Shown here piece after piece: positions 39,936-41,227 of a DNA stretch of 64,000 nt; the first letter of the stretch is position 1, and every line of letters starts with the position of its first letter. The notes under the pieces were generated by a model. The model saw only the letters and a list, made by a program, of their open reading frames with translations. It did not search any database and was not told the DNA's origin. This DNA comes from Escherichia coli (GTDB lineage: Bacteria; Pseudomonadota; Gammaproteobacteria; Enterobacterales; Enterobacteriaceae). The position numbers and the translations under genes are program-made. The stretch lies in the NCBI RefSeq assembly GCF_003334405.1, contig NZ_QOWM01000001.1. One strand, given 5' to 3'.

Positions 39936-39967
39936 AAACGGCAGGAGATAATATCCTGCCGTTTTTT
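39936..39967. terminator. bidirectional intrinsic terminator between gltX and yfeD
   Basis: Hairpin cggcagg-agataatat-cctgccg followed by T6; A/T-rich on the other side. Confidence 0.7.
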
Positions 39968-39969
39968 AT

Positions 39970-40362
39970 TTATGCTGATTCGTCAATATCGAGACGGGCG
40001 AGGAAATTGCGAATTCCTTCACGTGACAAAAATTGCGCGACTTTTTCCTGCTCAATGTCTGTCATATTATCTATCGCGTTGATGATTTGTCGATACGCCG
40101 GGGCGCGTGCTCCAGGAGCGTATTCAGCAATTCTCTCTTCAGCTTCCATCAACATTGGTGTGTTATGGAAGGCTGGCGTGTTCTGAATAAACTCGCAAAC
40201 TTGCGTATCGACCAGAATAAGTCTGGCACGACCGCCTTTCACGCCGGGAAATTTTTCCGTTTTCCAGCCTTTTTCTCTGATCCAACGGTTAACAGTTTGT
40301 TTAGCCACACCGAGGCATTCAGCCAGTTCTTCGGTGGTCATTTTATTGCGTAATCTTTTCAT
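39970..40362 (-). CDS. yfeD: putative HTH DNA-binding protein YfeD (130 aa)
   Basis: N-terminal HTH-like segment (TTEELAECLGVAKQTVNRWIREKGW); paralogous to the adjacent yfeC. Confidence 0.85.
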   Translation of the reverse strand: MKRLRNKMTTEELAECLGVAKQTVNRWIREKGWKTEKFPGVKGGRARLILVDTQVCEFIQNTPAFHNTPMLMEAEERIAEYAPGARAPAYRQIINAIDNMTDIEQEKVAQFLSREGIRNFLARLDIDESA

Positions 40363-40363
40363 A

Positions 40364-40708
40364 TTATTTGCTATCGCGAATCCCTAAGCGTTGTAACAAT
40401 CCGATAATCCCTTCCCGCAGAAGCAAGGATGTAAACTGTTTTTGTTCAACTGGCGTCATCTCTTTCGCCAGTGTCACCAGCAATACTTCAAGCGGCGCAT
40501 CACCAGAAAGGGCAGGCGCTTCTCCCTGACCTTCTGGACGTTCAGCATTGCGAATATATTCACGAACCTGTTCATTGACGTGAACCAGTCGGGCTTTGCC
40601 ACCCTGGACGCCAGGTTTTGGTGACGTTGTCCAGCCTTCCTTGCGTACCCATTTATTAATGGTCTGGCGGCTATAGCCGGTCAGTCTGGCAAGTTCATCT
40701 GGTGTCAT
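40364..40708 (-). CDS. yfeC: putative HTH DNA-binding protein YfeC (114 aa)
   Basis: Stop 1 bp upstream of the yfeD start; same motif architecture as YfeD (TPDELARLTGYSRQTINKWVRKEGW ... PGVQGGKARL); the track ORF begins 5 codons upstream at 40723. Confidence 0.82.
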   Translation of the reverse strand: MTPDELARLTGYSRQTINKWVRKEGWTTSPKPGVQGGKARLVHVNEQVREYIRNAERPEGQGEAPALSGDAPLEVLLVTLAKEMTPVEQKQFTSLLLREGIIGLLQRLGIRDSK

Positions 40709-40883
40709 CCTCTCCTTGAACATAACAATTCCCTGAATGTATGTGGGTCTATTAGTAGTTCATTTTATAACACCACTTTACAGGAAACCGTGACATGAAT
40801 AACTACTGAATGCGAGCGGTTTTCCAAAATTGTTCATTTGCCTGATTTTTCAGCGATTGAAACTACACGTTGCAATTTGCCGT

Positions 40884-40912
40884 TGACACATTCGGGCGGA
40901 ATTCATATGATG
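40884..40912 (+). promoter_or_regulatory. sigma70 promoter of the tRNA-Ala gene with GC-rich discriminator
   Basis: TTGACA, 17-bp spacer, TATGAT, followed by gccgcccg (stringent-type discriminator) about 30 nt before the tRNA. Confidence 0.6.
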
Positions 40913-40943
40913 CCGCCCGTCAACTCGACAAGCTTTACGTGAC

Positions 40944-41019
<76 letters not shown>

Positions 41020-41027
41020 AATTTCCA

Positions 41028-41056
41028 ACCCTCGCTGCAAAGCGGGGGTTTTTTGT
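41028..41056 (+). terminator. intrinsic terminator after tRNA-Ala
   Basis: Hairpin ccctcgc-tgcaaa-gcggggg followed by T6. Confidence 0.65.
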
Positions 41057-41227
41057 CTCTGCTTTTTGCCGCTTTTGTAATACAGTCTACGTCCGGGTTA
41101 GTGCCGCCTGGTGAAAGCATCATTGGATGAAAAATCGGCAACAGGCTGGCCCCCTGTTTGCTTCGCGATGCGAATAAACTTATTATTTTTGTGCCTGAAA
41201 ACCCCGATCAGTGAGAGTAGTGTACTC

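Follow-up and report, generated by a model that had tools for sequence, protein, structure and literature searches.

The yfeC-yfeD pair of Escherichia coli: core genes for two small paralogous proteins with probable kinship to the repressor c of phage Mu

A stretch of 64,000 nucleotides (nt) of Escherichia coli DNA (NCBI RefSeq assembly GCF_003334405.1, contig NZ_QOWM01000001.1), referred to below as the window, carries on its minus strand two small genes that are 1 nt apart, encode proteins with a helix-turn-helix (HTH) segment and lie beside a tRNA gene. The question raised by this locus is what such a pair represents: a preliminary description, made from the letters alone, had suggested a regulatory remnant of some integrated element. 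The pair proves to be yfeC and yfeD, core genes of E. coli that were named before and are already known from a Pfam family, from published maps obtained by chromatin immunoprecipitation with exonuclease treatment (ChIP-exo) and from mutant phenotypes. In the explanation preferred here, to which we assign a probability of about 0.8, yfeC-yfeD is a core operon of two paralogous small DNA-binding regulators that are shortened, chromosomal homologues of the repressor c of phage Mu (Mu c).

Identity of the two proteins and their relation to Mu c

The gene yfeD (b2399; 39970..40362, minus strand) is an open reading frame (ORF) for a protein of 130 amino acids (aa), a YfeC paralogue with a PF07037 match, and yfeC (b2398; 40364..40723, minus strand) is an ORF for 119 aa, also with a PF07037 match, whose product is annotated in RefSeq as a YfeC-like transcriptional regulator. 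In the sequence, the yfeC stop codon TAA (40366-40364) is followed by the single base 40363 and by the yfeD start codon ATG (40362-40360), giving TAA-T-ATG; the coordinates, ORFs and 1-nt spacing given in the preliminary description were all confirmed. Both proteins matched the Pfam family PF07037 ("Transcription regulator YfeC-like", earlier DUF1323) from position 1 to position 122 of its 122-position model: YfeD with an expectation value (E) of 1.1e-63 (213 bits, residues 8-129) and YfeC with E 4.5e-51 (173 bits, residues 6-118). Both are therefore full-length members of this family by profile search, and the earlier guess at a DUF1323-type family was right. When compared with each other by BLASTP, YfeC and YfeD were 38% identical over 127 columns (E 3e-27), a degree of sequence similarity by which they are paralogues far beyond chance.

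A 1251-base query spanning the pair was found with 100% identity in several complete E. coli genomes, in which the region is annotated as yfeD, yfeC, tRNA-Ala and gltX. The annotated gene order of strain K-12 is xapR, lysV-valYXU, gltX, yfeD, yfeC, alaW-alaX, pdeA, nupC, and orthology with the K-12 genes is established by near-identical sequence together with the same surroundings (gltX convergent, alaWX divergent, pdeA and nupC as in K-12). In an alignment, positions 40700-41150 of the window (yfeC 5' end, intergenic region and tRNA-Ala) corresponded to MG1655 minus one 115-bp tRNA-Ala unit. The sole difference of note from the K-12 proteins concerns the length of YfeC, the start of which is ambiguous: the ATG at 40723 gives 119 aa (the ORF and the PGAP annotation), whereas the ATG of Met6 at 40708 gives the 114 aa of the K-12 annotation. 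The sequence AAGGAG lies just 5' of the Met6 ATG, and both candidate start codons are conserved across genera.

The common architecture that had been noticed in the two proteins was real, and its three elements (the N-terminal HTH, the PGVxGGxARL motif and the C-terminal tail) were all conserved in an alignment of 52 family members. Near-invariant residues in the N-terminal part were T7, E10, L11, A12, G16, Q20, T21, N23, W25, R27, W31, G38, V39, G41, G42, A44 and R45; those at the C-terminus were M89, T90, E93, R103, E104, G105, L110, R112, L113 and I115. An AlphaFold2 model of YfeC (mean predicted local distance difference test score, pLDDT, 81) contained helices at residues 8-15 and 19-29, strands at 33-35 and 45-48, a helix at 51-59, a disordered segment at 63-74, and two further helices at 78-88 and 91-112. 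As modelled, YfeC would have a winged HTH of the Mu type at its N-terminus and a hairpin of two helices at its C-terminus.

The relation to phage Mu was examined by profile comparison. When a profile of the 52 members was compared with all PDB sequences, the best match was 1TNS, the DNA-binding domain I-alpha of the transposase of Mu (E 0.0034); the family sequence MTtEELAellGvarqt..inrWvreqgWkteklpGvkGGrA was aligned with VSPKELANLPGLPKTSAGVIYVAKKQGWQNRTRAGVKGGKA, and GW-x6-GVKGGKA was common to both. Using hhalign, the family was matched to residues 1-81 of Mu transposase with a probability of 94%, to Mu c with a probability of 93% (105 columns), and to an alignment of 12 Mu c sequences with a probability of 97% (E 8.8e-11, 107 columns, Mu c residues 16-133); the reversed-sequence control gave E 0.21. 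With the halves taken apart, the probability was 96% for the N-terminal half (E 7e-9) and 64% for the C-terminal half (E 6.5e-5). The second aligned block is collinear with the first and pairs E-M-T-P-x-E-Q-K-Q...L-L-L-R-E-G-I-x-G-L-L of the family with E-L-E-P-D-E-A-R-K-A-L-K-L-L-S-K-G-G-L-x-A-L-M of Mu c. The distance between the two groups is bridged by the Serratia rubidaea members of the family, which matched YfeC (E 1.8e-10, 112-115 aa) as well as Mu c (E 7e-13) by BLASTP, and basal or intermediate members carry both PF07037 and PF02316 signatures.

At the profile level, these comparisons show homology of the PF07037 family to Mu c, and the family has the Mu-type characters: the GW...GVKGGKA wing was recovered both by hhalign and in the PDB search, and the model follows the order helix-helix-strand-strand-helix. 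Some members are named "HTH Mu-type domain-containing" or "Mu DNA-binding domain" in the source databases, so the N-terminal relation to Mu is not new; a literature search found no paper that discussed either the N-terminal or the C-terminal relation. PF07037 is accordingly placed as a truncated chromosomal branch of the Mu c-type repressors.

By these alignments, PGVxGGxARL forms the wing of a winged helix of the Mu type, with GVKGGKA as its equivalent in both Mu c and the Mu transposase, and the REGI..L..RLgI tail is the counterpart of the Mu c segment past the DNA-binding domain. This placement leads to two predictions. The N-terminal winged HTH of YfeC and YfeD would contact DNA through the recognition helix and the GVKGG wing. 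After a disordered linker, the C-terminal hairpin (E-M-T-P-x-E-Q...LL-R-E-G-I-x-G-LL) would be the site at which homo- or hetero-oligomers form, as its alignment with the Mu c segment past the DNA-binding domain suggests.

Compared with Mu c and the Mu transposase I-alpha domain (PF02316; 1QPM/1G4D and 1TNS/1TNT), YfeC and YfeD are alike and collinear over about 107 columns. Common to Mu c and the two proteins are, in the N-terminal winged HTH, W-x-[ST]-P-x-E-L and the wing motif G-W-x6-G-V-[KQ]-G-G-[KR]-A, and, further along, a helix with E-[LM]-[ET]-P-x-E...L-L-x-[KR]-x-G-[LI]-x-x-L-[LM]. In the region of the recognition helix, YfeC and YfeD have the canonical SRQTINKW, two residues fewer, whereas Mu has SVAGVHYRA. 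Neither protein is a full-length repressor of the Mu c family, which would have about 170-200 aa: with 114-130 aa against 196 aa, they end at the position aligned with about residue 133 of 196 of Mu c, and the last 60 or so residues of the latter have no counterpart. In Mu c, most of the leucine-rich multimerisation region lies beyond residue 133 or so, as does the tail by which sensitivity to ClpXP is controlled. Unlike Mu c, which is encoded in a transposable phage next to ner, A and B, YfeC and YfeD belong to the chromosomal core. Around the pair no transposase or Mu-like gene was present, and a tblastn search of the 64-kb window with Mu c gave no match at E<=1. A corresponding search with Mu Ner gave a single match, of 44% identity over 25 aa at 30691-30765 (E 0.033), about 9 kb from the pair, which is probably an unrelated HTH.

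Conservation of the locus and the question of a mobile origin

The distribution of the family was assessed in a scan of 100,044 species, represented by one genome each. A relative was found in 301 species, and the best 80 of the 301 were examined: all were Enterobacteriaceae, from about 25 genera, and all had a tandem pair (80/80). In E. coli, the yfeC-yfeD pair was present in 5426/5426 complete genomes. Across the 80 loci the context was conserved, with nupC-pdeA-tRNA-Ala(GGC) on one side of yfeC-yfeD and the convergent gltX-tRNA-Val-tRNA-Lys on the other; exceptions were some Kosakonia-type loci, where gltX was not adjacent, and some Citrobacter loci, where pdeA was missing. A single copy convergent with gltX was found in Erwinia and in Chimaeribacter (Yersiniaceae), the Chimaeribacter copy being near mntH, nupC and two tRNA-Ala genes, and two unassigned Enterobacterales-like contigs had one or two family copies beside gltX. 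The family is small, since no more than 280 representatives, mostly fragments, reached E<=0.001 in a set of 1.84 billion proteins; its named PF07037 members come from Enterobacteriaceae, Erwiniaceae and Yersiniaceae, and it is confined to Enterobacterales.

In a neighbour-joining tree, all 80 first-position genes (80/80) fell into one clade and 73 of the 79 second-position genes into another. This two-clade topology implies that the duplication is older than the radiation of most Enterobacteriaceae. Intermediate second copies were those of three Atlantibacter loci (L058, L065 and L066), of L077, a locus deposited as Citrobacter freundii, and of Entomohabitans. The ratio of nonsynonymous to synonymous substitution rates (dN/dS) was 0.06-0.23 for yfeC and yfeD, and amino-acid changes in yfeD were about twice those in yfeC; to judge from the sequences, both genes are under purifying selection. 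In Enterobacter sp. BIGb0383 (locus L051, 5001-6144), three tandem members were observed, one yfeC-like and two yfeD-like.

The idea that the pair is a regulatory module of repressor or excisionase type, left by a decayed prophage or island that had integrated at the adjacent tRNA, draws on several features of the locus. The products are small HTH proteins with weak matches to models of excisionases, terminase small subunits and transposase N-termini; tRNA genes flank the pair on both sides; the G+C content is slightly low (45-48%, against 50-55% in gltX); and the protein type is related to a phage repressor, that of Mu. With the excisionase model TIGR01764, YfeD reached 27.7 bits and YfeC 18.7, both below the curated cut-off of 28.8 bits; other matches were to phrog_4151 (7e-9 and 1.5e-6) and to HTH_17 (4.9e-7). 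None of the marks of an integrative-element remnant was found, be it mobile genes, an att-like repeat, a position 3' of the tRNA or variable presence. ORFs and annotation showed no integrase or other mobile-element gene around the pair, and the remark in the preliminary description that there is none held for the whole interval from xapR to nupC; the 3' end of tRNA-Ala was not repeated within the 64-kb window. Integrative elements and islands occupy the 3' ends of tRNA genes, whereas yfeC and yfeD lie on the 5' side of tRNA-Ala and upstream of the valU-lysV operon. Instead of being variably present, the locus occurs in every E. coli genome counted above, and its synteny extends over the whole set of 80 Enterobacteriaceae species and to Erwinia and Chimaeribacter. 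The composition profile of the locus was unremarkable, and purifying selection on both genes likewise argues against a decaying remnant.

Phage and plasmid collections gave no support to a mobile origin either. A tblastn search of 50,697 phage records with both proteins found nothing at E<=1e-3, and short HTH-level matches alone at E<=5. Matches were present in 13 of 72,556 plasmid records; these were rejected as a sign of mobility, since six of the records are chromosome-sized (0.57-5.4 Mb) and 12 of the 13 are typed as non-mobilizable. A scan of IMG/VR yielded 10 loci encoding HTH proteins of 147 aa or Nu1-like proteins of 203 aa. In the two of these loci that were inspected (L083, 4466-6450, and L084, 4950-6967) a phrog_4151-type ORF lies directly upstream of an ORF of 510-525 aa, with a 4-nt overlap in L084, and the downstream ORF of L083 matched the terminase large subunit family phrog_38 at 2e-66. 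The phrog_4151 members in these loci are probably small terminase subunits. The viral proteins were not accepted as PF07037-family members, given that they lie beside terminase large subunit genes and that their similarity is to the HTH only. They share with the excisionase/AlpA-type HTH_17 and with YfeC and YfeD the pattern T-x-x-E-[IL]-A-x-x-x-G-V-S-R-Q-T-[IV]-N-[RK]-W (hhalign 97%, 38 columns), but the similarity of the 147-aa phrog_4151-type proteins ends after the HTH, and both the GVKGG wing and a common C-terminal motif are lacking. The members of phrog_4151 are annotated merely as "DNA binding protein". Separately, proteins of 400-1900 aa with 5-15 matches to the HTH part of the profile (P0193, P0196, P0198, P0203 and others) were observed, which are multi-HTH repeat proteins.

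Taken over all this evidence, an element remnant at the tRNA is a very improbable account of the pair, and for any event within Enterobacteriaceae it is largely refuted. As a core feature, the yfeC-yfeD locus has been inherited vertically; the tRNA genes beside it are part of the ancestral gltX neighbourhood, and their adjacency is no integration scar. A single core context for the homologues is the outcome that, by the preliminary description, would refute a mobile origin, and it is the one observed in all 80 species, Erwinia and Chimaeribacter. At a much deeper level, the homology to Mu c bears the idea out in part. It is plausible that this type of protein has an ancient origin related to phages, with transfer in either direction.

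DNA binding, the sfsB connection and competing functions

Targets and function were described as unknown in the preliminary account, which is outdated: the literature holds ChIP-exo and RNA sequencing (RNA-seq) data as well as mutant phenotypes (PMC8464067, PMC5847654). Using tagged proteins, Gao et al. 2021 (PMC8464067) mapped 50 ChIP-exo sites for YfeC and 36 for YfeD, and reported a YfeC motif of TTC-rich inverted repeats 6 nt apart (MEME E 7.1e-10). In the yfeC knockout of the same study, 205 genes were differentially expressed, 16 of the 20 direct targets were repressed by YfeC, and the log2 fold-change of yfeD was +4.3. As for phenotypes, extracellular DNA release was raised in a yfeC mutant, according to a study cited within PMC8464067, and a yfeC mutant of E. 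coli K1 colonised the small intestine of neonatal rats poorly and was less lethal (PMC5847654); in enterohaemorrhagic E. coli, deletion of yfeC left LEE1 expression unaffected. The published data point to site-specific binding and to an action of YfeC that would be mainly repressive.

A possible partner of the two proteins came to light in S. rubidaea (GCA_014840855.1, locus L102, 3940-5357), where two family members of 120 aa, 90% identical to each other, stand in tandem away from gltX, between mdh/argR and ispB-rplU-rpmA. At a distance of 144 nt lies a divergent gene, the sfsB orthologue, whose product has 66% identity to SfsB of E. coli and 57% to Ner of Mu. The immunity region of Mu is laid out likewise, with c (leftward) divergent from ner (rightward); the S. 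rubidaea locus differs from it in lacking a transposase and in being bordered by core genes, argR and mdh on one side and ispB and rplU on the other. A position of sfsB beside ispB is seen in E. coli too, but the counterparts of the two halves are about 0.8 Mb apart there, yfeCD at gltX and sfsB (Nlp, Ner-like) at ispB, and a search of the ispB-sfsB region for a decayed repressor-like gene found none.

Among the ChIP-exo peaks of YfeD, the strongest (signal/noise 57.6) starts at exactly the coordinate at which a YfeC peak (28.6) starts. After an approximate conversion of coordinates, this shared peak would fall on about nucleotides +23 to +52 of sfsB, and among the factors of the dataset only YfeC and YfeD have a peak there, besides a weak YciT site about 40-70 nt upstream. 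The c/ner-like layout in S. rubidaea and the shared E. coli peak at sfsB together suggest descent from a common c/ner-like module, and YfeC and YfeD may still be linked to SfsB in function, possibly as regulators of sfsB. Going further, YfeC, YfeD and SfsB could be what is left, dispersed and domesticated, of an immunity switch like that of Mu which was fixed in an ancestor of Enterobacterales, with a hetero-oligomeric repressor acting on a Ner-like partner; this remains a tentative proposal, which we think rather doubtful. If true, the SfsB link would clearly exemplify a bistable switch of phage type whose parts the host has retained as regulators. YfeC and YfeD might also cross-react with the operators or the enhancer of incoming Mu-like phages and so affect immunity or transposition. 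The homology to Mu c past the HTH and the link to sfsB are what is added here to the known facts on the pair, and both are directly testable.

Several points weigh against the explanation of yfeC-yfeD as an operon of two Mu c-like regulators. On the side of the homology, PF02316 matched YfeC at E 0.048, short of the threshold, and for YfeD it was absent from the 25 listed of 28 matches with E<=10; as a consequence, profile-profile comparison and intermediate sequences carry the link to Mu c. Taken by itself, the C-terminal similarity to Mu c (probability 64%, as given above) is a modest one. In a Foldseek comparison of the model with the PDB, Mu domains were not among the 50 matches listed, which consisted of generic winged-helix regulators (best E 5e-3, template modelling (TM) score <0.4) and BldC, an outcome that is uninformative and not contradictory. 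On the side of regulation, sfsB was not among the genes reported as differentially expressed in the yfeC knockout, within the portion of the published results covered here, and the rise of yfeD in that knockout could be a polar or cassette effect instead of relief from autorepression. The published YfeC ChIP-exo site labelled "yfeC" (NC_000913.2 2516052-2516085; approximately 40997-41030 of the window) falls, after conversion, on the 3' end and terminator of alaX and off the yfeC promoter. For this conversion, the offset from NC_000913.2 to NC_000913.3 was taken to be +1978, presumably correct to within a few nt, from older coordinates of gltX. This peak on alaX is possibly a high-transcription artefact or real binding at the tRNA operon. 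Many other low-signal sites also lie at very highly expressed genes (rpmH, rpmB, rpsU, lpp), and when a motif was sought anew in 9 of the YfeC ChIP-exo peaks, no convincing shared motif was seen by inspection.

These last points would be expected if YfeC and YfeD were abundant DNA-binding proteins of low specificity, nucleoid-associated or otherwise non-transcriptional, and the "regulon" mostly ChIP noise. The low-signal sites at ribosomal-protein genes, lpp and one tRNA gene, and the lack of a robust motif in the 9 peaks, favour this possibility, as do the 40% of YfeC sites that are intragenic, the targets without a coherent functional theme, and the fact that the only compact structural match is BldC (TM 0.63 on the target), a small MerR-like protein that binds as multimers. 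We nevertheless regard it as unlikely. Some peaks have a very high signal/noise ratio (chaA 2057, mukF 209, abgR 187), the motif of the original authors has an E of 7e-10, 205 genes changed in the knockout, and at sfsB the YfeC and YfeD peaks start at one coordinate, beside nothing but the weak neighbouring YciT site.

Two other functions have entered databases and papers as labels, and to both we give hardly any credence. RASTA-Bacteria predicted yfeD/yfeC to be a type II toxin-antitoxin pair, which was repeated in later papers, and two small, nearly overlapping neighbours, at least one of them with an HTH as in many antitoxins, do resemble such a locus. The partners are, however, paralogues of the same DNA-binding architecture, and Pfam, NCBIfam and PADLOC gave no match to a toxin family beyond the HTH level (the sole PADLOC match was an HTH-level one to mad1). 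Toxin-antitoxin loci are mobile and patchy, whereas this is a fixed, strictly syntenic core locus; single-copy versions exist in Erwinia and Chimaeribacter, and viable single yfeC knockouts have been made. Effector-sensing activators of the classical MerR family are suggested by the PGAP product name of YfeD ("MerR family transcriptional regulator") and by the placement of Mu-type, excisionase and MerR HTHs in one fold superfamily (SUPERFAMILY assignment in the supplement of PMC8464067). Against this, the Pfam model MerR_1 matched YfeD at E 0.32 and YfeC at E 0.24, and, where a MerR protein has a long antiparallel coiled-coil and an effector-binding C-terminus, the model of YfeC shows a disordered linker and then a short hairpin of helices; NCBI puts "MerR family" on the Mu repressor too, so the label is generic. 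YfeC and YfeD are also listed under LysR in a table of PMC4797297. The present findings correct all of these labels, "MerR family" (PGAP), "LysR family" (PMC4797297) and "toxin/antitoxin locus" (RASTA), along with that of a tRNA-island remnant.

Operon layout and neighbouring elements

An extended -10 element, TGTTATAAA (40764..40772, minus strand), lies 41-49 nt before the yfeC ATG at 40723 and is the candidate yfeC promoter. In phylogenetic footprinting, 69 of 70 orthologous intergenic regions had TGnTATAA at a constant position, 46-50 nt ahead of the yfeC start codon; a sigma-70 scan made no call at this element, and a good -35 is not present. From this conserved extended -10, yfeC and yfeD would be transcribed jointly, divergently from the tRNA-Ala operon. 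In 51 of the 80 species the two genes were 1 nt apart, and overall their spacing varied from -20 to +19. On inspection of the sequence, no clear Shine-Dalgarno was visible 5' of the yfeD ATG, and this, together with the start of yfeD 1 nt past the yfeC stop codon, suggests that yfeD translation is probably coupled to that of yfeC. The common transcript would end at the bidirectional intrinsic terminator between the convergent gltX and yfeD (39936..39964; inverted repeat I1), whose stem of 11 bp includes 6 G-C pairs and which has a T-run on each strand.

The tRNA-Ala(GGC) gene, equivalent to alaX/alaW (40944..41019, plus strand; ARAGORN, Rfam 63 bits), is divergent from yfeC, 220 nt upstream of it, and is a neighbour outside the operon. 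Its promoter, TTGACA-17-TATGAT (40883-40911), has 11/12 matches and is conserved among the 70 orthologous regions.

Two further elements were observed in the region upstream of yfeC. A GCGAG-N4-CTCGC dyad with variable spacer, about 100 nt upstream of the yfeC ATG, was perfect in 21 of the 70 species and had at most 1 mismatch in 37 of 70 (loci L021-L079); in E. coli it is degenerate, and its right half alone survives (window approximately 40805-40830). To judge from this conservation, the dyad is probably the binding site of some factor. At a similar distance of about 100 nt from yfeC on its upstream side, the word TTTCCAAAA (40821..40829, plus strand) is a candidate binding word, though a weak one. 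It is one of only two matches to the pattern TTTCC.?AA[AT]A in the 64-kb window, and it was missing upstream of yfeC in the other 69 of the 70 species. The pattern, which was picked post hoc, also occurs inside two YfeC ChIP-exo peaks and twice in S. rubidaea, where the 144-nt region between the sfsB orthologue and the repressor-like genes contains two copies of TTTCC(T)AAAA.

In the tandem tRNA clusters on both sides of the pair, the window has fewer copies than K-12: one tRNA-Ala(GGC) where MG1655 has alaW and alaX (one 115-bp unit fewer), and, in the region 38090-38244, one tRNA-Val(UAC) where K-12 has valU, valX and valY. Either recombinational collapse or an assembly artefact may account for this. 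An RtT RNA (Rfam RF00391; 37934-38059, minus strand) was detected with 46.7 bits against a gathering score of 45, 3' of the tRNA-Lys gene, as in the annotation of K-12 ER1709.

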